Assembly (NCBI GenBank): GCA_902609025.1
Contig: CACLQD010000003.1
Span: 1 to 50,578 of the forward strand
DNA: 50,578 nucleotides
Origin: an uncultured PS1 clade bacterium
GTDB taxonomy: Bacteria > Pseudomonadota > Alphaproteobacteria > MED-G09
Reading direction: 5' to 3'
This document shows, in pieces, positions 26,772 to 50,578 of this stretch. Numbering within the stretch: position 1 is the stretch's first letter; every line of letters starts with the position of its first letter. The notes under the pieces are model-generated. The model searched no databases. It saw nothing but the letters and a program-made list of their open reading frames with translations, and was not told the origin of the DNA. The translations under genes were made by a program, and so were the position numbers.

Positions 26772-26779
26772 AAACTAAA

Positions 26780-27454: not shown

Positions 27455-27467
27455 CAGAAGATAGCTT

Positions 27468-28079: not shown

Positions 28080-28188
28080 AATTTTAATCCTTTTTTGATA
28101 ATATTTATTTTATTTAGTAATTTTGTTAATCTGATTGAAAGATTAATGAAAAAAAAGATTTTTACAAATAATTTATAGGAGATTTAAA

Positions 28189-29714: not shown

Positions 29715-29749
29715 AAAAAAAAAGAGGCAGTATATACTGCCTCTCTTTT
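29715..29749 (-). terminator. Intrinsic terminator downstream of the TonB-dependent receptor
   Basis: AGAGGCAG-TATATA-CTGCCTCT hairpin followed on the minus strand by a long T run. Confidence 0.85.
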
Positions 29750-29769: not shown

Positions 29770-32211
29770 TTATCTTCGATATGATAGTTTTAAAGCAATA
29801 GTTCTTCCTGGTTTTACATAAGCATATCTGTCGCCTGTGAAGCCATTTTCAGTTCCAGTCAAACCACCTGTAGAAGGTGCGTCGGCTGCAGAAGTTTGAA
29901 TATACTCATCTGATAAATTTCTTCCTATTAAAGCTAGTTTCCAACCAGCCTCAGGAGAGGCAATACTTACTGAAGAGTCTACAGTATTATAAGAAGGTTG
30001 CTTAATGCCTGGTATAGTATCACTTAATCTATAATCGCTAGAATATTTAACATTAGCATTAAGTCCAAACTCTAATCCATTACTTAAAATAGTATTATAG
30101 TTAAAACCAAAATTAGCTCTTGTTTCAGGAGCTAAAGCTCTTTTACTATCGTTAAGGTCTTGAAGTGTAAGACCTCCATCAGGAATATTACAACCTTCAG
30201 AAGGTTTTTGACCTCCAGCACAAGGACCAACAAATCTAACATAATTGGAATCATTGTATCCAAAAGCTGTATTTAGCCTTAATCCATCAATCAAAGGTGG
30301 TAAATAAGTGAGCTGAATTTCAAAACCTTCAGACTCTGACTCTTCTGCATTTAAAGTTCTGTAAGCAAAAGTAGCAGCATTAAAATAGTTCAATTGAAGG
30401 TCATCATATTCATATTGATAAATGTCAAAATTTACCTCTAGATTTCCATCAGCAACTAATGCTCTAACACCAGCCTCAAAACCTTTTACATGCTCCGGTT
30501 CATATGTAATATCTTTAACTGGATTTGCATTTAATGTGCTATCAATAGAGCCATTATCAAATCCACCAGATTTCCAACCCTCTTTATAAGCTAGGAAATA
30601 GGTAAGCGATTCTGTAGGTTGATACCTAAATGTTACCTCAGGAACAAAATCATCAAATGACTGATCTGCCGCTAAAGTTCTTCCTTCAACGAATAAAAAG
30701 CCAAAAGCTGGACTAACATATGGCTGAGTGAAATATGAGTCTTTAGACTCATCTATATAACGACCACCAGCTGTTAGCTGCATAGTATCATTAATATCCC
30801 ATTTTATTTCACCATAAATTGAGAATGTTTCACCATCTGTCTCAGAAACTTTATCATATGCAACATATCTATTAGTTGGATCTGCAGCAGATTCCTCTGC
30901 ACCAGCGAAGATAACTTCTTGGGCAAAATATCTTTCCGTTTCTTGAATATATCCACCTAAAACCCAATTTAATGGCCCTTCACTAGTTGAAAGCCATTTA
31001 ATTTCTAATGAGGTATTTTCAAAGTCATTAACCTCACCAGCAAATATATTAGTAGCACCACCATAATCAGCATCAATTACCCAAGCTACATTTTGTTCAT
31101 GAGTATTTAGAACAGCGATCAATTGCGAATTATCAAAATCATGAGTTAGTGATGTTGTAAAAACTTTAGATTCATATGTTTCACCTAATGCACCACCAAA
31201 TTGACCAGTAAGCTCATAGGCTGCAGCAGGAACAGTTGGAATATTATTCAAACCAGTTCTTCTGTCTTTTTTACATTCTCCAGCAGACGGTACTGGGGTT
31301 GCAACATTTCCTGCATTATTATGAGGTACATCACCTAAATAACAATCAAACAATTCTCCTAAAGTAGCAGAAGCCATTGTCACATCAGCAAAACTTGCTT
31401 TAAATTTAAGAGTAGTTCTATCCCCAATATCGCCTTTTAAAGTTAAACGACCATATGTTTTTTCATCTGCAGGATAGAATTTCTGAGTAGGAGCAGGATT
31501 TTCATGGGATGTTGCTGCAAAACCATTACTAAAGTCTAAAGTTGTATATGTTGTATCGCCAGCAATATTTTGAATCCAACCCTCATCCATTGTGCTGTCA
31601 TAAAGAGCTAACCTAGCGCCCCAATTTTCACTAATAGGACCAGAAACAACAAACTCAAAAGTATCTGTTTTATATTCAAACTCATGAGACACACTTGCGA
31701 TTATCTCAAATTCATCACCAGGATCGTTGGTTGTAATAGTCACAGCTCCAGCTGTTGCGTTTTTACCAAAATAAAGAGCTTGAGGACCTTTAAGAATAGC
31801 TATCTGACTAGTATCATATAAACCTTCATTTATCACCCTACCTTGAGGAAAATATACATTATCGATCATTATTGCGACAGATTGTTCAATTCCTAAACTA
31901 CCAGGACTAGATGCTATTCCCCTAATTGCTACTTGAGCACCACTTCCACTATTAATTCTATTGATTTCTAATGAAGCTGATGTTGCCGCAATGTCATCAA
32001 TTGAGGTAATATTAAAATTCTTCATATCCTCTTCACTATATGCAGAAATAGCAACCGGTATATCTCTAACCGCTTCTTCTGTAGCACGAGCCGTAACGAC
32101 TATTTCTTCAATAGATGAAGATAATGAGCTTACTTCCGAATCTTGAGCATAAATTGAAAAAGCAAAAAATACTGAAAAAACAGGTATAGCTAGTTTGTTA
32201 AAATGTAACAT
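29770..32211 (-). CDS. TonB-dependent outer-membrane receptor
   Basis: Signal peptide, TonB box IEEIVVTAR, plug motifs IRGI and LKGPQALYFGKNATAG, barrel motifs GWKSGGF and RNLSDE. Confidence 0.93.
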   Translation of the reverse strand: MLHFNKLAIPVFSVFFAFSIYAQDSEVSSLSSSIEEIVVTARATEEAVRDIPVAISAYSEEDMKNFNITSIDDIAATSASLEINRINSGSGAQVAIRGIASSPGSLGIEQSVAIMIDNVYFPQGRVINEGLYDTSQIAILKGPQALYFGKNATAGAVTITTNDPGDEFEIIASVSHEFEYKTDTFEFVVSGPISENWGARLALYDSTMDEGWIQNIAGDTTYTTLDFSNGFAATSHENPAPTQKFYPADEKTYGRLTLKGDIGDRTTLKFKASFADVTMASATLGELFDCYLGDVPHNNAGNVATPVPSAGECKKDRRTGLNNIPTVPAAAYELTGQFGGALGETYESKVFTTSLTHDFDNSQLIAVLNTHEQNVAWVIDADYGGATNIFAGEVNDFENTSLEIKWLSTSEGPLNWVLGGYIQETERYFAQEVIFAGAEESAADPTNRYVAYDKVSETDGETFSIYGEIKWDINDTMQLTAGGRYIDESKDSYFTQPYVSPAFGFLFVEGRTLAADQSFDDFVPEVTFRYQPTESLTYFLAYKEGWKSGGFDNGSIDSTLNANPVKDITYEPEHVKGFEAGVRALVADGNLEVNFDIYQYEYDDLQLNYFNAATFAYRTLNAEESESEGFEIQLTYLPPLIDGLRLNTAFGYNDSNYVRFVGPCAGGQKPSEGCNIPDGGLTLQDLNDSKRALAPETRANFGFNYNTILSNGLEFGLNANVKYSSDYRLSDTIPGIKQPSYNTVDSSVSIASPEAGWKLALIGRNLSDEYIQTSAADAPSTGGLTGTENGFTGDRYAYVKPGRTIALKLSYRR

Positions 32212-32355
32212 AATGTTCCCTCCCCAGGTTTATTTGTAATAATAATTATTATTATTAATATTGGAAATTAAAGAAAAATATATAAAATGTAAAATATTTA
32301 TTATTAATTTTAATTTGGCTTATTTTTATTAAATTATAATAATCTAGGGGGAAAA

Positions 32356-32766
32356 ATGGCTTTTAATGGTCCAGTTGAAGACAAATTAGCAATTCATGAA
32401 TTAGTTATGGTTTATGGAGATGCAGTTACAAGAAAAGACTCAGATGATTGGGGGTCTACTTGGGATGAAAAAGCAATATGGAGTGTTCCAAATTTTCCTG
32501 GATTAGAGAAAGTTGAAGGAAGAAAAGAAATAGTTAAAAAATGGGAAGAAGCAATGGAAAATTATAAGTATATTGTTTTTACAGCCCTTTTAGGCTCTTT
32601 AGATATAAATGGAAATAAAGCTTCAGGCACTACTTATACAATTGAAGTTAGTACAGACATCGAAGATAAAAAATCTCAAATTCATGGCCAATATCTTGAT
32701 GAATTCATAAAAAAAGGAAACAAATGGCTTTTTCTAAAAAGAACATTTTCAATTTTACATGATTAA
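32356..32766 (+). CDS. NTF2/SnoaL-like protein
   Basis: DKLAIHEL..Y.DAV..KD...W...W...A.W and GQY.DE..K....W.F..R pattern. Confidence 0.85.
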   Translation: MAFNGPVEDKLAIHELVMVYGDAVTRKDSDDWGSTWDEKAIWSVPNFPGLEKVEGRKEIVKKWEEAMENYKYIVFTALLGSLDINGNKASGTTYTIEVSTDIEDKKSQIHGQYLDEFIKKGNKWLFLKRTFSILHD

Positions 32767-32783
32767 TAAAAATAAAGGTAACT

Positions 32784-34133: not shown

Positions 34134-34197
34134 AAAAATATATATTTATTTTTGTAAAATTTATTAACTTATAAAAGAAATTTTTTTTAGGGGAAAA

Positions 34198-35634: not shown

Positions 35635-35662
35635 AAAAAAGCGCCTTTGATTGACGCTTTTT
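35633..35662. terminator. Probable bidirectional intrinsic terminator between convergent genes
   Basis: AAAAAGCG-N11-CGCTTTTT with A/T tracts on both sides. Confidence 0.6.
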
Positions 35663-35683
35663 AATAATTCATAATACTAAAAA

Positions 35684-36094
35684 TTAATTTTGTTTAGGTA
35701 GCCAAATTTGACCTAGAATAATTATTCCTGAAACAACGAAGAAAGCAATACCTAAAGGAACAGGAGTTGTAACAGCTTCTGTAGTTCCAACATAAGCTAT
35801 GTAACCTTCAGCAGTGCTTGAAATTTCAGTGCCACTTGCTTTTAGATCGCTTAAACTTCTTGAAGCTGCAATCCATGTATTCGCTACTGTTGTTGCTTGT
35901 ATCCAGCCAAAAGATAGTACGATCAATCCAAAAGCACTTGAGATAATCTTAGTTAAAAGATTTGTTTCAGGATTATTTCTTGTGTTCAAAGCAATTCTCA
36001 TTGAAAGCCAAACAGCTAAAATTGATCCTATCCCAACTAGTCCTGACCCTATTCTATTTGAGGTCCATATTTGCCATATTTGAAATTCTTCCAT
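35684..36094 (-). CDS. Uncharacterised small membrane protein (about 3 TM)
   Basis: Three hydrophobic segments, strong RBS (AAGGGAG) and its own downstream terminator. Confidence 0.7.
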   Translation of the reverse strand: MEEFQIWQIWTSNRIGSGLVGIGSILAVWLSMRIALNTRNNPETNLLTKIISSAFGLIVLSFGWIQATTVANTWIAASRSLSDLKASGTEISSTAEGYIAYVGTTEAVTTPVPLGIAFFVVSGIIILGQIWLPKQN

Positions 36095-36188
36095 TTTTTT
36101 CTCCCTTTTTTATTTAATGAATAAATTAATAATTTTTTATTATTTTTATTTTTTTCTAGTAGGCTAATAAAAAAAACTATTACCTAAC

Positions 36189-36258
36189 TGAGAATGATTC
36201 TTATCTAATAAGAAATAACGAATTTAAGCGATGATTTTTTGAATTTTCTTGTGGATAA
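36189..36258. promoter_or_regulatory. Fur-like 7-1-7 palindrome (containing GATTC) and a perfect DnaA box in an AT-rich spacer
   Basis: TGAGAAT-G-ATTCTTA at 36189-36203; TGTGGATAA at 36250-36258. Confidence 0.4.
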
Positions 36259-36287
36259 CTTTTCTAAAAAGTTTTTTTATATTTTTA

Positions 36288-36440
36288 TCAGGCTAATTTA
36301 ATTTTAATTTTTTGTTTTTTAATTTTTATCCTATGAAGATGAGAATAAATATTTTGAGTTCTTTTATTGATAATTGATTTAATGTTGTTTCTTCTTTTTC
36401 TAGCTCTTTCTGATCTTATTAAGCGCTCTGATTTATCCAT
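36288..36440 (-). CDS. Small, highly basic 50-aa protein (below the ORF-track length range)
   Basis: MDKSERLIRSERARKRRNNIKSIINKRTQNIYSHLHRIKIKKQKIKIKLA, followed by TGA TAA; co-oriented with both neighbours. Confidence 0.55.
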   Translation of the reverse strand: MDKSERLIRSERARKRRNNIKSIINKRTQNIYSHLHRIKIKKQKIKIKLA

Positions 36441-36483
36441 AGAATTATTTTATTGATTCTTAAAAATATTTCAAACAAGATCT

Positions 36484-36837
36484 TTATATTTGAGACTCAT
36501 GTTCTTCGACTATATATGTTCTCATCAATGACAAATCAAATAATTGCTCTTCATCGTCATTTATTTCTTTTTTAATTTCCGGCTTTTGAAGGTTTTCAGC
36601 GCATTTTTCAAATGTTTCCATATCCGGATACCATATTTCCATTAATACATCGAAATCTGGATCATATGTTTTTCCTGATCTATCAGGCAACGGATTGGTA
36701 AAGCGTCTTATATATTTTGTAGCGTATCCTGTTAGATATTTCTCACCAATTATTCTGTGCTTAGTTTCATAATATTCTCGAAATTCGTCGATTGTCATAC
36801 CTTCTTTTCTTCTCATAGGCATTATAACTTTTATCAT
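36484..36837 (-). CDS. EthD domain protein
   Basis: RKEGMTIDEFREYYETKH, FDV.MEIW and DEEQLFD pattern; GGAG RBS. Confidence 0.85.
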   Translation of the reverse strand: MIKVIMPMRRKEGMTIDEFREYYETKHRIIGEKYLTGYATKYIRRFTNPLPDRSGKTYDPDFDVLMEIWYPDMETFEKCAENLQKPEIKKEINDDEEQLFDLSLMRTYIVEEHESQI

Positions 36838-36848
36838 TAATATTCTCC

Positions 36849-38051: not shown

Positions 38052-38069
38052 CCTACTCTCCAATTTTTA

Positions 38070-38531
38070 TCAATTTATCCTAAATGGATCATCAACTAAG
38101 CTTTCAGGAATAGTTAAATCATTTTCAAAAAGACACTTTTCAATCAAGACAGTATCAAAAAAAGCGTGAAGTTCAATTATCTTGTTATCTTTTATAGTAA
38201 AAATTTCACAGTAAGTTTGTTCATAAATTTCACCATTCTTGGTTGGTCCTCCGCCTTGCATCATGCCAACCACTCTATCATTTTCAGCAGCAATTATTTT
38301 CCATTTTTTTGAAAATTGAACCTTATCACTTACAAGTTTTTCTAGAAGCTTTTCACCTATCATCCCATTACAACAGGCATCTTTACCATAAATTCTACCA
38401 GAAACCGGTGTATTTCCTAGCATATTGTAAACAACATCATCGTGATGCATATTGTAAATCGTTTCAAAATCACCTTTTTCTAAAGCAACATACCATTTCT
38501 CAATTAATTCTTTATTTTCTTCAACGCCCAT
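38070..38531 (-). CDS. NTF2/SnoaL-like (ketosteroid-isomerase-related) protein
   Basis: ENKELI..WY.AL..GD, G.TPVSG...GK, IAAENDRV and Y...Y...F.I...KI......FDT pattern; start moved to ATG 38531. Confidence 0.82.
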   Translation of the reverse strand: MGVEENKELIEKWYVALEKGDFETIYNMHHDDVVYNMLGNTPVSGRIYGKDACCNGMIGEKLLEKLVSDKVQFSKKWKIIAAENDRVVGMMQGGGPTKNGEIYEQTYCEIFTIKDNKIIELHAFFDTVLIEKCLFENDLTIPESLVDDPFRIN

Positions 38532-38590
38532 TAATTTATTCCTTAAAATCATTGTTTGAAAACATAACTATTTAAGACTATATAATTTGC

Positions 38591-39565
38591 ATGAGATTAC
38601 TATTAGTTTTTTTTATAATTCTACTTTCTACTTCAATATCTTTTTCAGAAGATAGATTTTCTAATTCTGATGGCAAGAAAAATGAAAAAAGCCTTAGTGA
38701 GGTTCTAAAATGGAGTTGGAGTCGTGAAGAGCCAAAAAAAGAATTTATTGAAACAAATGAAATAATAAATTCTGAATTTTTTGAGGATCGTAAATTTTAT
38801 GCTTTATGGATTGGTCATTCTACATTTCTAGTTAATAATGGCGATATTACAATTTTATTTGATCCCATATTCTCGAATAGAGCTTCTCCATTATCTTTTG
38901 CTGGACCAAAAAGACTAATAAAACCTGCAATCGATATTAAAGATTTACCAAAAATTGATGTTATTACAATTAGTCATAATCATTATGATCATCTTGATAT
39001 AAATAGTTTAAGAAAAATACAAAAGAGATTTCCTAATGTTAAAATTTTAGTTCCAAAGGGTGATTTAAAATTGCTGAAAAACTATCAGCTTATTAATGGA
39101 TATGAGTTCATATGGTGGGAAGATAAAATAATAAGCAATACAAAATTCACTTTCACTCCTGCGCAGCATTGGTCGGCAAGAGGTCTTAGAGATAGAAATA
39201 AAAGTTTATGGGGTAGTTGGTTCATTGAAAACGATAATAAAAATATTTTCCATGCTGGTGATACAGGTTATTCAAAAGATTTTGTTGAGATAAAAAATAA
39301 ACTTGGGTCAGTAGATTTTGCAATGATACCTATTGGTGCATATGATCCTGAATGGTTTATGAGTTATTCACATGTTACGCCAGAGGAAGCATTAAATATA
39401 TCCATAGACCTTGATGCTAAAAAAAGCATCGGAATGCACTGGGGAACCTTTATATTAACTGATGAACCAGTTTTAGAACCTAGGGAAAGATTGAAGAAAA
39501 TAGCCTCTGAAACAAATATTAATTTTTACACAGTTGAACCTGGAATAATAATTGAATTATACTAA
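38591..39565 (+). CDS. Secreted MBL-fold hydrolase (NAPE-PLD/RomA-like)
   Basis: Signal peptide; WIGHST, SHNHYDHLD, PAQHWSARG, GDTGY, PIGAY and MHWGTF motifs. Confidence 0.88.
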   Translation: MRLLLVFFIILLSTSISFSEDRFSNSDGKKNEKSLSEVLKWSWSREEPKKEFIETNEIINSEFFEDRKFYALWIGHSTFLVNNGDITILFDPIFSNRASPLSFAGPKRLIKPAIDIKDLPKIDVITISHNHYDHLDINSLRKIQKRFPNVKILVPKGDLKLLKNYQLINGYEFIWWEDKIISNTKFTFTPAQHWSARGLRDRNKSLWGSWFIENDNKNIFHAGDTGYSKDFVEIKNKLGSVDFAMIPIGAYDPEWFMSYSHVTPEEALNISIDLDAKKSIGMHWGTFILTDEPVLEPRERLKKIASETNINFYTVEPGIIIELY

Positions 39566-39572
39566 TTAAAAT

Positions 39573-40937: not shown

Positions 40938-40942
40938 TATAA

Positions 40943-41341
40943 TTACTCTCCATAAAGATTGCTAAACGATCTTTTAGAAAATTTCCATTCTCCATTTTCT
41001 TTAATGCATTCATCATCATATTGACCACAAGGTCGTAATTCAGTTCCATCAGGTAAAACTGCAGTTTCAATAGTGTAACTTCTCATGGAAGCTTTATCGC
41101 CATCAATTTTAATAAAACCAGGTTGAGCGATCATATGTACAAATGGATATCCTTTCATAGCCTCATTCCAAACATTAATGATTGTCTCCTTGCCTTCATT
41201 TTTGATATCTAAATGTGGAATTTCCCAGATAGCATTTTCTGACCATGTGCTACCCCAGATGCTAGCGTCTCTTTGATTAACGCCATCACAGTATCGATCT
41301 AATAGCTCTCTTATAGCTAATTTTTCTTCCATAATACTCAT
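40943..41341 (-). CDS. NTF2/SnoaL-like protein
   Basis: Homologous to the 32356 protein (KLAI.EL, WGSTW...AIW, YTIE, GQY.DE.IK....W.F.KR.FS). Confidence 0.85.
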   Translation of the reverse strand: MSIMEEKLAIRELLDRYCDGVNQRDASIWGSTWSENAIWEIPHLDIKNEGKETIINVWNEAMKGYPFVHMIAQPGFIKIDGDKASMRSYTIETAVLPDGTELRPCGQYDDECIKENGEWKFSKRSFSNLYGE

Positions 41342-41514
41342 AGAAAACCCCCTTTTTAATTAATTACTAAGCTCAATTAATTTATAGTCTAGGTTAAAAT
41401 ATAATGAAATTACAGTTTTTTTTGAGTAAAAAAATTGTTTCAAAAAATATCATTTTTTCTTGCTAAAATTAAAAATTAACATAAAAACTAGGGAATGTTA
41501 TATATAGTGTTGTT

Positions 41515-42933
41515 ATGAGTGAAATAAAAAAAGAAAAACAAAATCTTTCAGTTGTTAAAACTGGTGACGAAAGATCGCCAGATATTAGCTATACAGAATA
41601 CTTAATGGAAGATGCAAAAACAGTACCTGAATTTATGGTTGAGGAAACTTATGAATATCTTGGCTCTGAAGATATAGATACTTCCAGATATATTTCTAAA
41701 GAATTTTTTGAAAAGGAAAGAGACTGCATGTGGACTAGAGTCTGGCAATTTGCTTGCAGAGTAGAGGATATTCCTGAAGTTGGCGATAGTCTTGTTTACG
41801 ATATACTTGATTGGTCTTTTTTAATTGTGAGATCTGAGGAAGATAAAATTCAAGCTTTTTATAATAGCTGTTTGCACAGAGGAAGAAGAATTAAGACTGA
41901 ACGTGGATTTGGTAAGGATTTACAATGTCCTTTTCATGGTTTTTGTTGGAATTTAGATGGATCATTAAAATTTACTCCTGCTCCATGGGATTTTCAGCAC
42001 ATAAAAGATAGAGATTTTAAACTTCCAGAAGTTAGAGTTGAGATTTGGGAAGGTTTTGTATTTATTAATATGGATGATAAAGCTGTCTCACTAGAAGAAT
42101 ACCTTGCTCCTCTTCCGGAACATCATAAAAGATGGAATCTAGGTGATTGTAAAAAAGTTATTCATGTTTCAAAAGTAGTTCCAGGTAACTGGAAGACAGT
42201 TCAAGAAGCATTTATGGAGTCTTTTCATGCAACATTAATTCATCCTGAAATTTTACCTTTCCAGGCAGATGAAAATGCACGTTATGATATTTACGGCGAT
42301 CATATGAACAGAAATATTGCTTTAACAGGAAAACCAAGTCCAAATTTGAAAAATGTAGATGAGCAGGAAATACTAGACACCATATTTTATGGATCTGGTC
42401 GAATGGCTGCAGATGATAAGATTCTTGTTCCAGAAGGCGAAGAAGCTAGAAAGGTTGCAGCTCAATCAATGAGAGATGCCTTTGAAGAAGCCGATGGGCA
42501 TGATTACTCTGATAAATCAGATGCAGAAATGCTTGATGCAATAGTTTATAATGTATTTCCAAATTTTTCACCTTGGGGTGGCTTTCCAAGAAACCTTATC
42601 TATAGATTTCGACCAAATGGAAATAGAGAAGACTCTGCAATAATGGAAGCTATGTTTTTGCAAAGAAATCATAAAGATCCTGATAAGCAAGAAAAATATG
42701 AACCAATCCCAATACATTATCTTAATGAAGATGAAAACTGGGATGATGCTGAAGAATTAACTGGTATAGGTTTTATTTTTGATCAAGATATGGGTAACAT
42801 ACCTGAGGTTGAAAGAGGTATTCGAGCTAGTAAATCTGGTAAATTAACATATGCAAATTATCAAGAAAGTAGGCTTAGACATTACCATCAAACAATGGAT
42901 AAATATATTGCAAAGGGTCCTTTTAAGCCTTAA
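41515..42933 (+). CDS. Rieske non-heme iron oxygenase alpha subunit (4, more divergent)
   Basis: CLH...CPFH; EAFMESFHATLIH; distal QD. Confidence 0.93.
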   Translation: MSEIKKEKQNLSVVKTGDERSPDISYTEYLMEDAKTVPEFMVEETYEYLGSEDIDTSRYISKEFFEKERDCMWTRVWQFACRVEDIPEVGDSLVYDILDWSFLIVRSEEDKIQAFYNSCLHRGRRIKTERGFGKDLQCPFHGFCWNLDGSLKFTPAPWDFQHIKDRDFKLPEVRVEIWEGFVFINMDDKAVSLEEYLAPLPEHHKRWNLGDCKKVIHVSKVVPGNWKTVQEAFMESFHATLIHPEILPFQADENARYDIYGDHMNRNIALTGKPSPNLKNVDEQEILDTIFYGSGRMAADDKILVPEGEEARKVAAQSMRDAFEEADGHDYSDKSDAEMLDAIVYNVFPNFSPWGGFPRNLIYRFRPNGNREDSAIMEAMFLQRNHKDPDKQEKYEPIPIHYLNEDENWDDAEELTGIGFIFDQDMGNIPEVERGIRASKSGKLTYANYQESRLRHYHQTMDKYIAKGPFKP

Positions 42934-43697
42934 GCAGTGCTTCCTCCATCAACAGTATAAACTGAGCCTGTAACAAATGAACTATCATCGCTTGCAAGAA
43001 AAAGCATTACTTTGGCTACATCTTCCGGTTTACCATACCTACCTAATGGAATATTAGATTCCATAAGATCTTTTGCTTGCTTAGATTCACCCGGCATCAA
43101 TCCTTCCTCTAGACTTCTCATCATTCTTGTCTCAACCGGAGAAGGGTTAACTGTGTTTACTCTTATATTTTTGTCAGCGCATTCTTTTGCAGCAGATTTC
43201 ATCAAACCAATTACGGCATGCTTACTTGTTGCATAGGCACCTATTTGTGGTGCACCAGATAAACCTGCTATACTAGAAGTTATAATAAAACTTCCGCCTC
43301 CTCTATCAGTTAGTGCCGGAATGGATGCCTTTAATCCTAAAAAAGGCCCTTTCACATTTACAGCCATGACTTGATCGAATTTTTCAATGTCATAATCTTC
43401 TAAATTTTTAACATCACCTTCAATACCTGCATTTGCAACAAAAATATCAAGACCACCAAATTTCTTTTTTGCTATTTCTACAGCTCTTAAATTATCCTCA
43501 ATACATGTTACATCACCTGTGCAATAGCTGAGGTGATTAGAACCAATTTCTTGGCACAAGTTTTTTAAGTCGCTTTCATTTAAATCAAAAAGTAATACAT
43601 CAGAGCCTTCATTTAAAAATTCTATTGCTGTTGCCTTTCCTATTCCACCAGCCCCACCGGTAATTATAGCAACTTTATTATCTAATTTTTTAATCAT
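42930..43697 (-). CDS. Classical SDR oxidoreductase
   Basis: TGGAGGIG, ANAG, YATSK and VDGG motifs. Confidence 0.92.
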   Translation of the reverse strand: MIKKLDNKVAIITGGAGGIGKATAIEFLNEGSDVLLFDLNESDLKNLCQEIGSNHLSYCTGDVTCIEDNLRAVEIAKKKFGGLDIFVANAGIEGDVKNLEDYDIEKFDQVMAVNVKGPFLGLKASIPALTDRGGGSFIITSSIAGLSGAPQIGAYATSKHAVIGLMKSAAKECADKNIRVNTVNPSPVETRMMRSLEEGLMPGESKQAKDLMESNIPLGRYGKPEDVAKVMLFLASDDSSFVTGSVYTVDGGSTA

Positions 43698-43706
43698 TGA
43701 AATTCG

Positions 43707-44594
43707 CTATGAAGTATCTTTTACTAAATCACTTTGCGGAGGCAATGATGAAAAATCATCTATTTTTTCTCCAAAAATTCTTTCAGGACTTACCGAGTCC
43801 ATTGTTCCTTTTTTATCATCAGGGTCAGTGTAAAAACCAAGTACATATCCACCTTTAGAATATCCAATTAGCGATCTTAATTCAGGTGAAAAATTCTTAG
43901 CGACTTCAGGAGGATGAGATAGATACTGATTTTCCTCTTGCCTTAACCAGTTCAAAGCATAATGCATAAAAACTCCAGTTCTAATCTCAGTATCAGTGGA
44001 ATTTTTTCCACCTCCGTGAAGAACAGTCCCAGTATAAAGCAATACTGAGCCAGAAGACATTTCAGCATAAGCAATTTCATGCTCACTAGGAGTTTTATCT
44101 TTATCCCATTTATGTGAACCTGGAACAACTTGAGTAGCACCATTTTCTTTAGTGAAATCAGTTAAAGCCCAAATTGTACTGAAATGAGTTTCTATTTTTC
44201 TTGGAATATATCCACCCCAGATACCCCTATCGCGATGAAGTATCTGTTTTGATTCTCCAGGACCAATACTAACGGCTGAAGTGAAGTGAAGTTGATACCC
44301 ATCACCATAAGGTTCAAGGAAATTACAAGCTAGATTATTTATAAGGGGATGAAGAGCTAGATTTTGGCAACCAACTGATCTTGCTAACAAGCCTCCTACT
44401 CTTTTAGTCTCAAAACCAGTAAATTCAGTCTTTCCTTTAATATAATTATTTAAATAAGGATCTAGCTCATCTTTAATCTGGCTTAATAAATCATTATCTA
44501 GAACATCATCTAAGATTAATGCTGCATCTTGATCAATGACACTCAGGATATCCTCTTGAGATGCATCGGCTTTCAAGTGTTTTATATCAGCCAT
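43707..44594 (-). CDS. PhyH-family Fe(II)/2-oxoglutarate dioxygenase
   Basis: HxD (LHRD), ENGAT.VVPGSH, HGGG.N and LRQEENQ motifs. Confidence 0.9.
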   Translation of the reverse strand: MADIKHLKADASQEDILSVIDQDAALILDDVLDNDLLSQIKDELDPYLNNYIKGKTEFTGFETKRVGGLLARSVGCQNLALHPLINNLACNFLEPYGDGYQLHFTSAVSIGPGESKQILHRDRGIWGGYIPRKIETHFSTIWALTDFTKENGATQVVPGSHKWDKDKTPSEHEIAYAEMSSGSVLLYTGTVLHGGGKNSTDTEIRTGVFMHYALNWLRQEENQYLSHPPEVAKNFSPELRSLIGYSKGGYVLGFYTDPDDKKGTMDSVSPERIFGEKIDDFSSLPPQSDLVKDTS

Positions 44595-44597
44595 TTA

Positions 44598-45050
44598 TCA
44601 AATCCATCGCCTAACTTTTTTCATATATACTTTGAATTCTTCACCAAAGAGCTCAAGCATGGCATTCTCTTCAGGAATAATTTGAAAGTAAGTAATATAT
44701 CCAACAAATAAGGGTAAGAAAATTAGACCTACAATTAAACCGTTATAAATAGATAAACCTAATAAAAACAACAACATACCTAAATACATAGGATTACGTG
44801 TAATCTTAAAAAAACCATCAGTTACTAATTTAGAGGTCTCATTGGGTTTCATAGGATTAACAGTTGTATCTTTCTTTTTAAAATTTCTTGCTGAAGAAAA
44901 AGTTACAAAAAAACCTAATAGTATAAAAAATATTGAAATATATATTTTAAAGGGTAAATCGACAGATGGAAAATTGTCTGAAAAATAGAAAATCATAATA
45001 GCAAATAATATTGTTACTACTGGTGGTGGTATTTTTGTATTTAAAAACAT
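44598..45050 (-). CDS. Isoprenylcysteine carboxyl methyltransferase / PEMT family membrane protein
   Basis: TTVNP, LVTDG, TRNPMYLG, PEE..M...FG and VRRWI motifs. Confidence 0.88.
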   Translation of the reverse strand: MFLNTKIPPPVVTILFAIMIFYFSDNFPSVDLPFKIYISIFFILLGFFVTFSSARNFKKKDTTVNPMKPNETSKLVTDGFFKITRNPMYLGMLLFLLGLSIYNGLIVGLIFLPLFVGYITYFQIIPEENAMLELFGEEFKVYMKKVRRWI

Positions 45051-45460
45051 TATTGCTGACGAATTCCTCTAGAAACCAATCTATGACGATATATTTTCCA
45101 ATCTCCATCAACTCTCTTCATATCTGTTTCATATGTTGCCCAAAGAGTAAGTATTTCACCCTCAGGTTCTTTAAGATAATGTAAAGCTTGAACATCTGTT
45201 CTGCAGTGGGCGTCATCGCCATTAATTGAGGCAAGTTGGGGGCCTAGCATATGTTGAGTAGGGCCATAATTTGATAGCGCACCTTTCACATATTCAACCC
45301 AATTATCTCTTCCATTTATAGGTTGTTCACCAAAATCTAAAATCTCGACATCTTCGATAAAACATGAAGAATAAAGATCAAAATCACGCTCATCAACACC
45401 TGCTGCATATCTAAGCATAACATCTTGTAAAGCAATTCTATCCGCTACATGATCACTCAT
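45050..45460 (-). CDS. NTF2/SnoaL-like protein (BaiE/LinA/scytalone-dehydratase-like)
   Basis: DRIALQD..RYA.GVD.RD...TQH...W.I..R pattern; start moved to MSDHVAD, which has a GGGGA RBS. Confidence 0.82.
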   Translation of the reverse strand: MSDHVADRIALQDVMLRYAAGVDERDFDLYSSCFIEDVEILDFGEQPINGRDNWVEYVKGALSNYGPTQHMLGPQLASINGDDAHCRTDVQALHYLKEPEGEILTLWATYETDMKRVDGDWKIYRHRLVSRGIRQQ

Positions 45461-45540
45461 AGTCTTCCCCTTTAAAAATATATTTTTATTTAAGCATAAA
45501 TTTTGGCATAATTTAAATAATAAGTGAGAATAATAAAACA

Positions 45541-46698
45541 ATGTCAGAAATAAAACCTTTCAAAATCGAAATTGCTGATGAAGATATAAATAAATTAAGA
45601 AGCAGAATCGAATCTACCCGATGGCCAGAAAAAGAAACTGTAAACGACTGGAACCAAGGAACCCCTTTATCTTATATGAAAGAAGTTAGTGAATATTGGA
45701 TTAATAACTATAACTGGAAAGAAAGAGAAAAGTATTATAATTCTTTTGATCAATATATTACGACTATAGATGAACTTGATATTCATTTCGTTCATGTTAA
45801 AAGTGAAATTGAAAACGCAACACCATTAATTATGAGCCATGGTTGGCCTGGTTCAATTGTAGAATTTCATAAAATAATAAGACCTCTTGTTGATCCTCTT
45901 AATTATGGAGGAAAGAAAGAAGATGCATTCCATGTTGTGTGCCCTACTCTTCCTGGATATGGATTTTCTAGCAAACCATCAAAGGATGGAACAGGAGTTG
46001 ATAAAATTGCTGAAATTTGGAACCAATTAATGAATAAAATTGGCTATAAAAATTACTTCGCGCAAGGTGGTGATTGGGGTTCAGCCATAACAATTGCTAT
46101 TGGAAAGCAGAACAAAGGTAATTGTTTAGGACTACATGTTAACATGCCTTTTGCTCCACCAACTAAGGAGGCTATGGAAAATCCAAGTGAAAGAGATAAA
46201 ATTGCATTTGAAGGCTTAAATTATTATCAAGAATGGGGATCTGGTTATTCTAAACAGCAAAGTACAAGACCACAAACTTTAGGATATAGCCTTGTAGACT
46301 CCCCAATTGGTCAAGCGGCTTGGATAATAGAAAAATTCTATGAATGGACTGATTGTGATGGCCATCCAGAAAACGTTCTTACAAAAGAAGAGTTAATCGA
46401 TAATATTATGTTTTACTGGTTAACAAAAAGTGGAGCGTCCTCAGCACGTCTTTATTGGGAGAGCTTTGGATCATTTGGAGGAAATCCTAACGAAAAGCTT
46501 ACACTACCGATTGGTTGTAGTATTTTTCCAAAAGAAATTTCTCGTACTCCAAAAGCTTGGGCCGAACAAGTCTACTCAAATATTGTTTATTGGAATGAAT
46601 TAGAAAAAGGCGGTCATTTTGCAGCATTTGAACAACCTGAAATTTTTATAAATGAAATTAGAAATTGTTTCCGAACAATGCGCGACAATTTATCTTAA
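45541..46698 (+). CDS. Epoxide hydrolase (microsomal type, EHN domain)
   Basis: HGWPGS, GGDWG nucleophile motif and GGHFAAFEQP. Confidence 0.92.
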   Translation: MSEIKPFKIEIADEDINKLRSRIESTRWPEKETVNDWNQGTPLSYMKEVSEYWINNYNWKEREKYYNSFDQYITTIDELDIHFVHVKSEIENATPLIMSHGWPGSIVEFHKIIRPLVDPLNYGGKKEDAFHVVCPTLPGYGFSSKPSKDGTGVDKIAEIWNQLMNKIGYKNYFAQGGDWGSAITIAIGKQNKGNCLGLHVNMPFAPPTKEAMENPSERDKIAFEGLNYYQEWGSGYSKQQSTRPQTLGYSLVDSPIGQAAWIIEKFYEWTDCDGHPENVLTKEELIDNIMFYWLTKSGASSARLYWESFGSFGGNPNEKLTLPIGCSIFPKEISRTPKAWAEQVYSNIVYWNELEKGGHFAAFEQPEIFINEIRNCFRTMRDNLS

Positions 46699-46757
46699 TA
46701 TAAACATTGCAGTTTCTACAATAGGACTTATTTTCGTTGCAGTGTAGGGAGAATTAA

Positions 46758-47846
46758 ATGGTTAGGTTATTACTTTTATTATCAATTCTATTGTTTTCAA
46801 TCAATATATCGGCAATGTCGACTGCTATTGGACATGGCCCAATAGGCTTAATGGCTGATCATTTCCATAAAAAAGGAGAGTGGATGATATCTCTTAGGGT
46901 ATCGAATATGGAAATGAAAAAAAATACTTTGGATGGCAAAAATATTTCAGATATTGAAGTTTTAAATCAGCCTAATCCTTCTTTCAAAATGTCTTCTATG
47001 AACGACATGCCTATGATGGAAATGTCATCAATGAAAATGCCTAAAAATCTAAGTGTAATTCCAAGAAAAATGACTATGAGAATGATTATGCTTGGGGCGA
47101 TGTATGCGCCATCTGATAAAATAACTCTAATGGGCATGGCAATGTTCAATGAAAAGGAAATGGAATTGGATACATATAGAGGAATGATGAATAGAAACTA
47201 TTTAGGATCATTCGAAACCTCATCATCAGATTTATCAAAAATATCATTATCAGCATTATTTAATCTTCATGAAAGTGAAAGCTCAAGATGGCATTTAATA
47301 GGTGGATTAGAGAAAAGCATTGGTGAAAATACAAAAAAAGGAATGGTTTTAACGCCAATGAACACAAATACCTCAATTACTTTGCCATACGGTATGCAGC
47401 CAAGTGATAAAGCTTTAAGATTATTAACTGGAGTTACAAATGTTACTAAAATAAATAATTTTGTTTTAGGTAACCAAATTTTTTTTAGAAAAAGTATTGA
47501 AGAAGAAGACTGGAATTTTGGCGATGAATTTGAATATAACCTTTGGTTTCAAGGTTCATTTAATGACAATATTTCATATTCATTAAGGTTAAATTATTTA
47601 GATACTGATTCAATAAACGGAAAAAATGAAAATATAATGGCCCCTGTTCAAACAGCAAATCCAAGAAATTATGGTGGTGAGATCTTAAACATCGGAATAG
47701 GTTTTAATTTCATAACAAATTTTTTACCTGGAAAACACTCTGATAGGTTAGCAATCGAGTATATTATACCCATTGACCAAGATAAAAGTGGTTTACAAAT
47801 GAAGAATGAAGCTAAATTTATAATAGGTTTTCAAAAATCGTTATAA
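46758..47846 (+). CDS. Putative outer-membrane transporter with His motif and Met-rich loop
   Basis: Signal peptide; HGPIGLMADHFHKKGEWM; MSSMNDMPMMEMSSMKMP; MYAPSD; LPYGMQ; amphipathic beta-strand pattern. Confidence 0.65.
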   Translation: MVRLLLLLSILLFSINISAMSTAIGHGPIGLMADHFHKKGEWMISLRVSNMEMKKNTLDGKNISDIEVLNQPNPSFKMSSMNDMPMMEMSSMKMPKNLSVIPRKMTMRMIMLGAMYAPSDKITLMGMAMFNEKEMELDTYRGMMNRNYLGSFETSSSDLSKISLSALFNLHESESSRWHLIGGLEKSIGENTKKGMVLTPMNTNTSITLPYGMQPSDKALRLLTGVTNVTKINNFVLGNQIFFRKSIEEEDWNFGDEFEYNLWFQGSFNDNISYSLRLNYLDTDSINGKNENIMAPVQTANPRNYGGEILNIGIGFNFITNFLPGKHSDRLAIEYIIPIDQDKSGLQMKNEAKFIIGFQKSL

Positions 47847-47848
47847 AA

Positions 47849-48181
47849 TTAAATTTTTATTAAAAAATTTAGAATTGTTACAGAAATCACTGTTACTAAA
47901 ATACTTATTAAAAAAGCTATATAAAAACCAAATTTTGAGATGACAAAAGGAAAAATTAAAAACATTGGTATAGTTGGAACAATATAAAGCAATGTGTAGG
48001 ACACATGTGATGAAATTTTTTCATCAGAATTTCCATCATAATACATCCATAAAATAATAAGCAATGTCATTATAGGCATTGCGGCTATTAGGCCACTTAG
48101 CTTATCATTAACTTTGGCAATTTCACTAATAAGGACTATAAGACCGGCAGTTACTATTATTTTAATTATCAAAAAAATCAT
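47849..48181 (-). CDS. Small membrane protein (DUF3147-like)
   Basis: K...TA..IV.ISE.AK....GLIAAMP...LL...W pattern. Confidence 0.7.
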   Translation of the reverse strand: MIFLIIKIIVTAGLIVLISEIAKVNDKLSGLIAAMPIMTLLIILWMYYDGNSDEKISSHVSYTLLYIVPTIPMFLIFPFVISKFGFYIAFLISILVTVISVTILNFLIKI

Positions 48182-48183
48182 GT

Positions 48184-49245
48184 TTAATTTATTTTTGTGA
48201 TTTCAATCTTTTCAGAATTAGGCGGTAAAATTACCAATGTTCCGTCATCAGATAATGTCCATTCCTTTCTAATATCATTCACACCTCTAACAAACATTCT
48301 CTCCATCAAAGCATTTCTTGGTGCAGGAGTAAGATGATAAAAAACCAAATGCTTCACATTTGCCTGATTTGCAATTTCAGCGGCCTCAATAGGCGTTGTA
48401 TGATAAGTCACTATATCAGCCATAATTTTTGCAGCTAAATTATTGCCAACTTTTTTATTTTCATTTTCCAAAATTTTTACAATGTGGTTAGCTTGTGCCT
48501 CATGAAATAAAACATCAGCATTTTTAGAATTCTTAATTGTATTTTCCGTAGATATTGTATCACCGCTTATTACAATAGACCTTCCCTTATAATCAAAACG
48601 AAAACCTAAAGCCGGTTCAATCGGATCATGAATTACCTTGAAAGCAGTTACTTTCAAACCATTATCGTCAATTATAATTGGATTTGATAAATCAATGGTA
48701 AATGTTTCGTATCCAGCAAAATTAAGTGGAGCGACCTTATTTCCGTGGTGCTCATTTCTGAATTGGTAATCTAATTTATATGCGTCCTCAAAACCATTAA
48801 CAACATCTTCAACTCCTTCAGGTCCATAAACTTTTAATTTTTCAGATTTAGTAGGATTATTAACCCATGTATTTAAGTGTAAATCAGCAAGATCAGATAT
48901 ATGATCAGAATGAAGATGTGTAAAAAGAACGGCCTTCACAGGAGTTAGATCTACTCCCCAATTTCTCAAATTACTAATACTGCCATCACCAACATCAACT
49001 ACATACAAGTTCTGACCAGCCTTAATGATAATACAGGTTTCAGCTCTTCCAGGTGAAGGTAAAGGAGATCTACTGCCACAAACTAAAGCACTTAGTCCAT
49101 CATCAGGTAAAGAAACTGGATTTGAAAGGACGTTTTTTATAACATTTGTTACAACTCTATCCTGAATTGCAGGAACTCTAGATAAAACGAATAAGCTAAT
49201 TAGAAATATTACTAATATAAGAATTATATATTTAATTATTTTCAA
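48184..49245 (-). CDS. Membrane-anchored MBL-fold hydrolase (RNase Z/AtsA arylsulfatase-like)
   Basis: N-terminal TM; CGSRSP, THLHSDH, SGDT, HEA, YHTT and YHLTP motifs. Confidence 0.82.
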   Translation of the reverse strand: MKIIKYIILILVIFLISLFVLSRVPAIQDRVVTNVIKNVLSNPVSLPDDGLSALVCGSRSPLPSPGRAETCIIIKAGQNLYVVDVGDGSISNLRNWGVDLTPVKAVLFTHLHSDHISDLADLHLNTWVNNPTKSEKLKVYGPEGVEDVVNGFEDAYKLDYQFRNEHHGNKVAPLNFAGYETFTIDLSNPIIIDDNGLKVTAFKVIHDPIEPALGFRFDYKGRSIVISGDTISTENTIKNSKNADVLFHEAQANHIVKILENENKKVGNNLAAKIMADIVTYHTTPIEAAEIANQANVKHLVFYHLTPAPRNALMERMFVRGVNDIRKEWTLSDDGTLVILPPNSEKIEITKIN

Positions 49246-49718
49246 TTTGCTCTCTTTAAAGATAAAACAAAAAATATTGTCAATAAGATCAGAATGTATG
49301 GAGCCATATAAAAACCAGGCGTACCTGCTGTATTATAATCATTAATCACATCACCACCTCTACCAAAAAATGGATAATAAATAACTCTTAATCCCCACTC
49401 AAAAATCCAAAATAAATACATTAATGGTATAAATGACCGGTATTTAATGATTGCAATCCAACAAGCAATACAAAAAATTAATTGGGCAAATCCCCAAATA
49501 GAGAAAAAACGATAAATTAATGGCATAGGATCGGGATCACCCGTCAAAACAACAATATTTGCAATTTCATGCAATCCAAAGGGTTCAAAAAACATATGTA
49601 TTGCTGAGCGCCAAGTCATAAGAGTAAGAAATAGTATAAGTGCCCATAGGGCTATTCTATTTCCTGAATAGTTATTGTTCGCGTTTTCAGGAAATATCTT
49701 ATTAAAAAAATCTACCAA
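49242..49718 (-). CDS. Hypothetical membrane protein
   Basis: About 4 TM segments; RS.IH motif; overlaps both neighbouring genes. Confidence 0.6.
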   Translation of the reverse strand: MVDFFNKIFPENANNNYSGNRIALWALILFLTLMTWRSAIHMFFEPFGLHEIANIVVLTGDPDPMPLIYRFFSIWGFAQLIFCIACWIAIIKYRSFIPLMYLFWIFEWGLRVIYYPFFGRGGDVINDYNTAGTPGFYMAPYILILLTIFFVLSLKRAN

Positions 49719-50296
49719 CCAAACTCTCCTGTTTTAGTTTCAATATTAAGTTGGCCTTTTAAACCTGCGGCACGATGTTTTTCACTTTCTCTATAATCCG
49801 CATCCATAATCATTTCCATCATAGCTTTTCGGCTGGGATATTTAGCAATTGCGATTACATCCCAAAGTTCCCCTACTTCGCCTAACATCAACCGTTCAAC
49901 TCTTCCTGAAAAAATTGGTTCAGCTCCAACTTTTTTGAGATGTCCTTGCACTTCTTGTCCATAAATTAAGTAAGCCTCTTCACCGGTTAAATTAGTTTCC
50001 CTTCCATCTTCATATTCTGCTTTATCTTTAAATTTTAATAAATTAACCATAAATATAGGTGTATCAATATCACCTTCCATAAAACCTTTCATTTGCTCAT
50101 CATTTGGTACTAATGCATTTTTTACTTCCATAATCTCAACTCCATTAATTTCTTTTACAGATAATTCCGACCTTTCTCCAGACCCTCGCGCTTCAAGAAT
50201 AAGGGGATATATTTCAAAAATAATATTTGCTCGATAATTCCAACCAACACTTACTAAAATTATACATACACTAATAATAATTACAAAATTCTTCAT
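49712..50296 (-). CDS. DUF1330 domain protein with N-terminal hydrophobic extension
   Basis: PIFMVNLLKFKD.A.Y, G.EAY..Y, WD......YPSR and HRAAGL motifs. Confidence 0.8.
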   Translation of the reverse strand: MKNFVIIISVCIILVSVGWNYRANIIFEIYPLILEARGSGERSELSVKEINGVEIMEVKNALVPNDEQMKGFMEGDIDTPIFMVNLLKFKDKAEYEDGRETNLTGEEAYLIYGQEVQGHLKKVGAEPIFSGRVERLMLGEVGELWDVIAIAKYPSRKAMMEMIMDADYRESEKHRAAGLKGQLNIETKTGEFGW

Positions 50297-50577
50297 TTAT
50301 TTTCCTTTATAAAGTCTATTAGAATCCCTGAAAGTTTTTTAGACCTTTTCCATTGAAAAAAATGGCCCCCACCAATATGGGGTGCGCTTTTTGCATTTGG
50401 ACACATATTTAATACATCTTGTTCAATTCCATTTGTTACAGGATCATCACCGGCAAAAACACTTAGAAATGGTTTGTCCCATTTACTAAAAAATTCTCTT
50501 GCTTTCTTCTGTTCTTCAAGAGATTGATCAGGAATTATAGGCACTTGACTTGGCATTGCTCTAGGGCCCATTTTGTA
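50293..50577 (-). CDS. Haloalkane dehalogenase family alpha/beta hydrolase, C-terminal part (5' end beyond window)
   Basis: YKMGPRAMPSQVP, WDKPFLSVF..DDPVT and GGHFFQ; the frame is open to the window edge. Confidence 0.72.
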   Translation of the reverse strand, partial: YKMGPRAMPSQVPIIPDQSLEEQKKAREFFSKWDKPFLSVFAGDDPVTNGIEQDVLNMCPNAKSAPHIGGGHFFQWKRSKKLSGILIDFIKENK

Positions 50578-50578
50578 A

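Follow-up and report, generated by a model that had tools for sequence, protein, structure and literature searches.

The PS1 clade contig CACLQD010000003.1 (Alphaproteobacteria; MED-G09; assembly GCA_902609025.1) raises the question of how a locus encoding four Rieske oxygenase alpha subunits (RHO1–RHO4), bordered by a TonB-dependent receptor, can function when it encodes no electron carriers of its own, and what such a locus might act upon. The window analyzed here is the whole of this contig (C3; 50,578 bp), which belongs to a 911 kb assembly of 38 contigs whose completeness is judged to be 68%; the locus occupies positions 29,770 to 50,577 (Table 1). The best explanation of the whole, to which we give somewhat better than an even chance, is a multi-component Rieske oxygenase set that depends on one reductase-ferredoxin hub and is equipped with NTF2-fold partners and outer-membrane importers.

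In outline, electrons from NADH would pass through the one HcaD/AndAa-like FAD reductase of the genome and a [2Fe-2S] ferredoxin of putidaredoxin type, whose genes lie together on another contig, to the Rieske cluster of each alpha subunit, and from there by way of a bridging glutamate to the 2-His-1-Asp iron at which O2 would be activated. Substrates, which we presume to be hydrophobic or alicyclic, would enter through the TonB-dependent receptor, itself apparently tied in evolution to RHO1 and the NTF2 partner of RHO1, and probably by a second route, an outer-membrane barrel resembling COG4313 channels and FapF. The small SnoaL_4 proteins would be dedicated partners of the alpha subunits, and the short-chain dehydrogenase/reductase (SDR), epoxide hydrolase, metallo-beta-lactamase (MBL)-fold hydrolases, PhyH and EthD proteins would act on the oxygenated products.

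A reductase and ferredoxin encoded outside the locus

A Pfam scan of 55 open reading frames (ORFs) of the window recovered no ferredoxin, oxygenase-type reductase, classical beta subunit (PF00866), two-domain extradiol dioxygenase or DNA-binding regulator, in agreement with what an earlier note on this DNA, prepared from its letters and ORFs, had reported for the locus. That note had supposed that a reductase is shared in trans, and this appears to be the best-supported part of its interpretation. Contig C1 encodes a ferredoxin-NAD+ reductase and a small [2Fe-2S] ferredoxin (52584–54179) among housekeeping genes. The reductase (405 aa) contains Pyr_redox_2 and Reductase_C domains and scores 331–333 bits to AndAa and HcaD; the ferredoxin (106 aa), encoded 57 nt from it, contains a CX5CX2C...C motif and, among proteins of solved structure, is best matched by FdVI and putidaredoxin. 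Exactly one match to the reductase is present in each of 23 of 25 genomes of the family, including all eight of high quality, and the two with no match are 62% and 83% complete. The ferredoxin adjoins the reductase in two relatives too (G004 and G010), and one relative's version of the region has a small ferredoxin of its own. The PF00175 domain is absent from the window's genome, at its 68% completeness, and from all five relatives searched that are 95–97% complete.

Another small [2Fe-2S] ferredoxin is encoded next to a thioredoxin-reductase-like flavoprotein gene cut by the contig end (G000:C14:1-1049; L002), and the two could be a second ferredoxin-reductase pair.

The alpha subunits and their family placement

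All four alpha subunits contain the Rieske CxH...CxxH motif (at residues 92, 89, 87 and 119 of RHO1 to RHO4 respectively; PF00355, 6e-16 to 7.6e-14) and the catalytic domain PF00848 with an E-x-x-H-x4-H motif. A HMMER alignment places F208, E210, H213, H218 and D406 of RHO1 on Y203, E205, H208, H213 and D323 of CntA, and motifs and alignment agree with the earlier description of four intact subunits with CxH/CxxH and ExxH...H...D ligands. Among the 13 alpha subunits of the genome the histidine and bridging-carboxylate columns are kept in all, and the iron-ligand aspartate column in 12, including RHO1–RHO4, the exception being a C-terminally truncated copy (C15). The bridging residue is glutamate in all four window subunits and in 12 of the 13, with phenylalanine two residues earlier in RHO1–RHO4 and an aromatic residue (Phe or Tyr) aligned to CntA Y203 in all 13.

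This arrangement recalls the group V Rieske oxygenases, which are described in PMC7948474 as having a bridging glutamate with an aromatic residue (Va) or an asparagine (Vb) two residues earlier; this description and our alignment bear out the glutamate bridge that the earlier note had given for CntA-like enzymes. The alpha subunits might then be relatives of CntA, GbcA and Stc2, with which they share the glutamate, the aromatic residue and the 2-His-1-Asp ligands, and might demethylate or cleave quaternary amines and methylated osmolytes rather than hydrophobic matter. These compounds are abundant small marine metabolites. GbcA (NF058607) is moreover the best NCBIfam match for three of the four subunits and ties with HcaE for RHO2, and CntA is among the top solved matches. 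However, the GbcA scores are 109–134 bits against a 670-bit cut-off, with the N-terminal half alone aligned, and CntA (114 bits) and the biphenyl and cinnamate dioxygenases (105–109 bits) are nearly equal in PDB searches, again over the N-terminal half only. The window subunits, at 449–478 aa and with extra sequence inserted into the catalytic domain, are also longer than CntA, whose PDB chain has 391 residues, tag included. CntB/GbcB-type reductases carry PF00175, whereas the genomes searched have a GR-type reductase and ferredoxin instead. The gene company (NTF2 neighbours, receptor, epoxide hydrolase, SDR, PhyH and EthD, with P450s in relatives) is likewise unlike that of osmolyte use. The aromatic criterion for group Va discriminates poorly here because all 13 alpha subunits of the genome share the residue. 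We regard a group V relationship with a role in osmolyte use as unlikely; judged by sequence, the subunits share the glutamate bridge and aromatic residue with group Va but not group V size, family score or reductase type.

None of the four reaches any curated family cut-off in NCBIfam. RHO1 has matches at E 1e-20 in at least 1235 database clusters, and the best 120 listed bear only generic source names. RHO4, the most divergent of the four, has orthologues of 76–99% identity in three genera. On HMM and phmmer scores, the four alpha subunits appear to form an uncharacterised clade of long, Glu-bridged proteins outside any characterised family.

The NTF2-fold partners

The association of alpha subunits with SnoaL_4 proteins is well above chance: the genome has four immediate alpha/SnoaL_4 neighbour pairs against 0.23 expected, and none of 5000 shuffles reaches four. 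The order, NTF2 gene then alpha gene, is kept in Sphingomonadaceae loci (L023, L025 and L034), the last of these being plasmid pNL2 of Novosphingobium aromaticivorans DSM 12444.

This adjacency, the tight spacing of the SnoaL4_a-RHO1 (17 nt) and SnoaL4_b-RHO3 (5 nt) pairs and the conservation of such pairs in sphingomonads are what would be seen if the SnoaL_4 proteins were divergent beta subunits that escape PF00866, in which case RHO1, RHO3 and perhaps RHO4 would be ordinary alpha3beta3 dioxygenases of a conventional aromatic-ring set. Alpha subunits of this length are typical of beta-containing Rieske enzymes. There are weak similarities in the same direction: SnoaL4_b to the AndAd small subunit (7.7e-5; 22 bits against a 230-bit cut-off), another SnoaL_4 protein of this genome to PF00866 (3.6e-6), and a 172-aa pNL2 NTF2 protein to 3eby (5e-6), a PDB entry described as a putative aromatic-ring-hydroxylating dioxygenase beta subunit. 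The general likeness to the classical alpha3beta3 dioxygenases (naphthalene, biphenyl and HcaE types) extends to the Rieske and catalytic domains, an alpha subunit of ~450 aa, an NTF2-fold gene beside it and an HcaD/AndAa-like reductase in the genome.

Against this, none of the three window SnoaL_4 proteins matches PF00866 at E 1e-3, their matches being to SnoaL_4, SnoaL_2, SnoaL_3 or DUF4440. The structure model of SnoaL4_a (pLDDT 95) has as its top match PDB 3b8l (Foldseek TMq 0.89, VIA Z 18.7), which is the NTF2 protein encoded directly upstream of the RHO1 homologue on pNL2 and is 25% identical to SnoaL4_a in sequence (E 3e-9). The predicted fold is nearer LinA and scytalone-dehydratase-like proteins (Z 18.3–18.5) than dioxygenase beta subunits, so that stand-alone NTF2 enzymes (3b8l, 3ef8 and LinA; Z 18.3–18.7) head the structural neighbours and beta subunits rank 29th and 48th (Z 14.9 and 14.1). 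Nor is the pairing obligatory. In four loci (L047, L048, L050 and L079) the receptor gene separates SnoaL4_a from the alpha, no SnoaL_4 gene was found within 7 kb of RHO1-like alphas (57–59% identity) in six (L056–L058, L061, L062 and L064), the alpha of L018 stands alone, and several SnoaL_4 genes of this genome, on C19 and including SnoaL4_c, have no alpha gene nearby. The classical enzymes differ further in having aspartate, not glutamate, at the bridge and larger NTF2 subunits than the 132–136 aa of the proteins here; the window also has no recognizable set of dihydrodiol dehydrogenase and extradiol dioxygenase, and the region no ring-cleavage enzyme. A conventional set of beta-containing dioxygenases is a real possibility, if one short of an even chance, and we lean slightly towards reading the SnoaL_4 proteins as NTF2 enzymes that process the products (dehydratases, isomerases or epoxide-opening enzymes) and not as classical beta subunits.

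The receptor and its linkage to RHO1

A profile built from six receptor orthologues recovered 80 receptor loci, in which alpha genes within 7 kb were counted; these loci are not independent, several coming from close relatives. Where the receptor is at least 50% identical to that of the window (29 loci), an alpha gene is present in 19, and RHO1 is the best-matching paralogue in 18 of them (54–100% identity). Where it is 41–48% identical (51 loci), an alpha best matching RHO1 is never present and some other alpha is present in six. The linked loci derive from PS1 and OCS116 genomes, high-GC alphaproteobacterial metagenome-assembled genomes (MAGs) and one Pseudomonadales MAG (62% GC), where the RHO1 and receptor genes are immediate neighbours with the same orientation. 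In four PS1-type loci the receptor is accompanied by EthD and the barrel protein, with no RHO1 nearby, and in three of these by the small membrane protein as well. The solved relatives of the receptor match its plug region only and, like the structure search with the Sacchrp_dh_NADP protein, offer no hint of a substrate. The uptake-plus-oxidation locus that had been proposed for the whole region is supported only for its first module, in which receptor orthologues accompany RHO1 orthologues in several alpha- and gammaproteobacterial lineages; within this genome, the proximity of receptors and alphas does not exceed chance (see below).

In the high-GC, larger genomes a TetR regulator is encoded between the receptor and the alpha subunit, and another TetR is present in the Pseudomonadales locus. 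That no regulator is encoded here suggests a loss during streamlining of the genome, and since the TetR of the larger-genome relatives is missing, expression would probably be unregulated.

The receptor could instead belong with a beta-propeller phytase (28596–29660), encoded on the same strand 109 nt downstream, and serve in scavenging of phosphate or metal-phytate, with the proximity of the oxygenases being coincidental. Phytase-receptor pairs are known from other bacteria, the closest relatives have the two genes in the same order, and the failure of receptor-alpha proximity to exceed chance within the genome is compatible with this reading. However, the phytase adjoins the receptor in only six of the 80 loci, all from close relatives and two of them with SnoaL4_a in between, whereas the RHO1-like alpha accompanies it in 18 of the 29 close loci, including lineages that have no phytase. 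A strong terminator-like hairpin also separates the two genes (Table 1), although it is a hint only, because such sites, taken together, show no enrichment relative to shuffled sequence (12 versus 9.5 +/- 3.2), nor do promoter-like sites. We consider the phytase association a quite improbable account of the receptor.

The receptor is 73–79% identical to its copies in close relatives, compared with 93–100% for RHO1 and RHO2 in the three closest (L011–L013), and its identity dips to 62–68% around residues 200–300, 350–400 and 700–750, as expected if exposed loops were diversifying or alleles had been replaced. In L050 and L079, RHO2 is 96–97% identical to that of the window, RHO1 74% and the receptor 58–59%, and these mosaic identities suggest recombination within the cluster.

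Gene content

The inventory in Table 1 was drawn from the ORF listing and the Pfam scan. The receptor, four alpha subunits, four NTF2 proteins, EthD, PhyH, SDR, epoxide hydrolase and MBL hydrolases are all encoded where the earlier note had placed them. The enoyl-reductase-like protein of that note is a Sacchrp_dh_NADP protein by Pfam, for which a sequence search found no solved relative. The putative dehalogenase exists as a fragment matching NF002043, the gene itself being incomplete at the contig end; only the last 92–94 residues are encoded, and the full-length protein in the sister genome is 354 aa. Two genes had gone unlisted, those for the PEMT/ICMT-like methyltransferase and the signal-peptide barrel. 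The SnoaL_2 gene is absent from the closest single-cell genome contig (L011) and present in L012 and L079, and is thus a presence/absence polymorphism inside the cluster.

Table 1. Features of the multi-Rieske locus and its left boundary, in window coordinates.
Feature	Coordinates	Strand	Evidence and remarks
Terminator-like hairpin	29718..29749	-	14-pair stem then T run; between receptor stop and phytase gene
TonB-dependent receptor, 813 aa	29770..32211	-	Plug PF07715 5e-13; barrel PF00593 3.2e-31; divergent from SnoaL4_a
SnoaL4_a, NTF2-fold, 136 aa	32356..32766	+	SnoaL_4 4.3e-14; ends 17 nt upstream of RHO1
RHO1, Rieske alpha subunit, 449 aa	32784..34133	+	Rieske and Ring_hydroxyl_A
RHO2, Rieske alpha subunit, 478 aa	34198..35634	+	Rieske and Ring_hydroxyl_A; 36% identity to RHO1
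Small hydrophobic protein, 136 aa, without family	35684..36094	-	Kept beside EthD in relatives
EthD-domain protein	36484..36837	-	EthD 3.4e-13
Saccharopine-dehydrogenase-like NADP-binding oxidoreductase, 404 aa	36849..38063	-	Sacchrp_dh_NADP 7.2e-15
SnoaL_2 NTF2 protein, 160 aa	38070..38552	-	Pfam
MBL-fold metal-dependent hydrolase	38591..39565	+	Lactamase_B_2 2.4e-38
RHO3, Rieske alpha subunit, 454 aa	39573..40937	-	Rieske and Ring_hydroxyl_A; 44% identity to RHO1
SnoaL4_b, NTF2, 132 aa	40943..41341	-	SnoaL_4 8.3e-20; 5 nt upstream of RHO3, divergent from RHO4
RHO4, divergent Rieske alpha subunit, 472 aa	41515..42933	+	Rieske and Ring_hydroxyl_A; 25-27% identity to RHO1-3
SDR	42930..43697	-	adh_short_C2 3.1e-62
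PhyH-family Fe(II)/2-oxoglutarate dioxygenase	43707..44594	-	PhyH 2.6e-24
PEMT/ICMT-like membrane methyltransferase	44598..45050	-	PEMT 1.4e-14; isoprenylcysteine methyltransferase 3.4e-10, below its cut-off
SnoaL4_c, 163 aa, no adjoining alpha	45050..45541	-	SnoaL_4 9.6e-24
Epoxide hydrolase	45541..46698	+	EHN N-terminus 9.7e-39 and Abhydrolase_1
Predicted outer-membrane beta-barrel with signal peptide, 362 aa	46758..47846	+	Structure model; no Pfam match
110-aa protein, PRK09272 hypothetical family	47849..48181	-	NF006751 1.3e-35, 122 bits, below the 154-bit cut-off
Second MBL-fold hydrolase (RNase Z/GntH-like)	48184..49245	-	Pfam and NCBIfam
Two proteins of unknown function, 158 aa and 194 aa	49242..50296	-	194-aa protein with weak DUF1330 match
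Haloalkane-dehalogenase-like alpha/beta hydrolase, C-terminal fragment	50293..50577	-	NF002043 4e-15; contig end cuts gene

Several of these families (EthD, SnoaL-like, PhyH, methyltransferase and, elsewhere in the genome, ABM) are known from natural-product clusters as well, and the genes could encode tailoring enzymes for a secondary metabolite or modified lipid rather than catabolic ones. We find this highly improbable, since neither the window nor the 18 kb beyond it in the sister genome encodes a polyketide synthase, non-ribosomal peptide synthetase (NRPS) or terpene synthase, the genes are accompanied by two outer-membrane import-type proteins and major facilitator superfamily (MFS) transporters, and in larger genomes the homologues have TetR, MFS and catabolic-type genes as neighbours.

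Genomic setting

The locus had been described as an island, but as a discrete island it does not survive comparison. GC content is 0.30–0.36 from end to end of the contig with no step at 29.7 kb, no integrase or transposase families were found among the 55 ORFs scanned with Pfam, the gene order from phytase to PhyH is kept in close relatives, the genome has several such loci, and the region runs past the contig end. The sister genome G004 is collinear with window positions 38528–50578 at 94.6% nucleotide identity and continues for ~18 kb with similar genes, encoding an alpha/beta hydrolase, a GST-like protein, SDRs, a fatty-acid-hydroxylase-type protein, two MFS transporters, a PQQ-type dehydrogenase and another receptor. 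Neither regulators nor electron carriers were recognised in these 18 kb. By these sequence features the region is part of the core genome of a streamlined marine alphaproteobacterium and not a horizontally acquired island.

Upstream of the cluster (12159–28599) is a redox and detoxification run encoding a peroxiredoxin, MAPEG, a ferritin-like protein, a double ChrR-cupin, GST and a small VOC protein. The window also encodes two DNA methyltransferases, one of N6/N4 type with a RAMA domain (2863–3984) and one of C5-cytosine type (24034–25128), with no restriction enzyme recognisable beside either in the Pfam scan.

Oxygenase expansion across the lineage

The locus is one of several in its genome, which has 14 Rieske-domain matches, 13 of them in reading frames of alpha-subunit size (392–488 aa); Pfam confirms both alpha domains in nine subunits outside the window as well as the four inside it. 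There are in total 10 SnoaL_4 matches and 15 receptor plug matches. Contig C12 encodes three alphas, two SnoaL_4 proteins, a P450, ABM proteins and an MFS transporter, and on contig C4 a receptor gene is divergent from an alpha gene with SnoaL_4 nearby. All 25 genomes of the family (three genera, 0.9–1.6 Mb) have Ring_hydroxyl_A matches, 8–21 in each, and at E 1e-10 each of nine other genomes at least 87% complete has 12–19 alpha matches, such domain-match counts not being exact copy numbers. In another genus of the family (G024:C8 and G021:C19) eight alpha-subunit matches lie within ~72–81 kb of one contig, as one large super-cluster.

Part of the region is represented in 20 of the 24 RNA runs listed, which come from nine studies, and in no run are as many as half of the sampled words present. 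Contigs at least 92% alike from four seawater RNA libraries, each of a different study, touch 26–29 of 30 bins of the region, and one 2299-nt RNA-library contig lies on the receptor with four differences. Searches of the open-access literature found nothing on Rieske oxygenases in the PS1 clade or Parvibaculales, and nothing joining a Rieske oxygenase, a TonB-dependent receptor and SnoaL.

Comparison with known systems

A close parallel in a cultured organism is the pNL2 cluster, in which Rieske alphas are interleaved with NTF2 genes, SDRs and a P450 (four alphas, four NTF2-family genes, one of them of 358 aa, six SDR-type genes and one P450). As in the window, no ferredoxin or reductase is annotated in this 17-kb stretch, and one alpha is 44% identical to RHO1, with the 3b8l gene just upstream. 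Sphingomonad oxygenases share dispersed electron carriers. Unlike the window, pNL2 is a large plasmid of a large-genome soil bacterium, and there is no TonB receptor within the 17 kb. The architecture of the window is thus not unique, given this similar multi-alpha/NTF2/SDR/P450 cluster on a cultured sphingomonad plasmid, for which an open-access literature search found no printed function. In the gammaproteobacterial MAG locus L020, a 43%-identical alpha precedes a Rieske-type ferredoxin among ChsH2-like, thiolase-like, enoyl-CoA hydratase and SDR genes, a setting reminiscent of steroid side-chain degradation.

The two outer-membrane proteins also have counterparts. DdvT of Sphingobium sp. 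SYK-6 is, according to PMC6874591, a TonB-dependent receptor for a lignin-derived biphenyl, and so resembles the window receptor in its proposed role as a receptor tied to catabolism of an organic compound that is neither sugar nor siderophore; the window receptor differs in co-occurring with one particular Rieske alpha subfamily. The 362-aa barrel (model pLDDT 85) has FapF (TMt 0.67–0.71) and the COG4313 channel 4rl8 (TMt 0.69–0.70) as its best predicted fold matches. The COG4313 channels, represented by Pput2725 of Pseudomonas putida F1, are a family implicated in uptake of hydrophobic molecules, according to the abstract of PMC4493636, and are signal-peptide beta-barrels with a fold similar to that predicted for the window protein. 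The window protein is, however, only ~10% identical and has no Pfam match, Phenol_MetA_deg included, and FapF scores equally; one near Atlas cluster carries PF13557 on 17% of its members.

Weighing the shared-hub explanation

Several observations weigh against a set of oxygenases served by one hub and fed by dedicated importers. The clients of the C1 ferredoxin are only inferred, because the same type of ferredoxin, that of putidaredoxin, is the classical partner of class I P450s; G004 (1.4 Mb, same genus) has ~10 P450 reading frames (12 PF00067 matches), and the C1 pair may serve P450s instead of, or besides, the Rieske enzymes. Further reductases could be missing from a genome that is 68% complete. 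Ten of the 29 close-receptor loci have no alpha nearby, and although several of these are on short contigs, L037, L038, L044 and L046 are not. Within this genome only two receptor-alpha pairs lie within two genes of each other against 0.8 expected, a number reached in 955 of 5000 shuffles; a general rule of receptor-Rieske pairing was dropped for this reason, and the RHO1 case rests on conservation across genomes. The barrel matches no Pfam family, and the structural similarity of its model is of moderate strength. The region has no CoA ligase, ring-cleavage or beta-oxidation genes, so that 'catabolic' is an assumption. Finally, the RNA-library contigs show presence and prove neither transcription nor co-expression; they give no ranking of genes, and bins that they leave uncovered (for example 38595–39261 in X1 and X5) mean nothing.

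Implications

The interest of the locus lies in the density of oxygenases in a small genome (12–19 Rieske alpha matches per 1.3–1.4 Mb, and the P450 complement of the same-genus genome described above) and in the conserved unit of receptor, RHO1 and NTF2 protein. Should the shared-hub explanation fail, the locus would be one more uncharacterised Rieske oxygenase cluster. Three handles lead towards substrates: the TetR (TetR_C_30) encoded between receptor and alpha in larger-genome relatives (L057 and L019), the alpha/NTF2 pair of the cultured sphingomonad (SARO_RS18565 and SARO_RS18570) and the solved NTF2 structure 3b8l.

A wider reading, which we put forward tentatively and think doubtful, is that the receptor subfamily, the RHO1-type alpha and a LinA/scytalone-dehydratase-like NTF2 protein constitute a portable uptake-plus-oxidation unit, a non-sugar counterpart of the polysaccharide utilisation loci. 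The PS1-type lineage would have multiplied such units, retained one shared hub and lost TetR control, giving constitutive oxidation of scarce, refractory alicyclic or hydrophobic matter of the surface ocean.

If the shared-hub explanation is correct, a little-studied but abundant group of bacteria of the oligotrophic ocean devotes an unusual fraction of its very small genome to oxygenases that depend on ferredoxin, with a single reductase feeding them and dedicated outer-membrane importers supplying them, and would have a specialised role in oxidising poorly degradable marine dissolved organic carbon.

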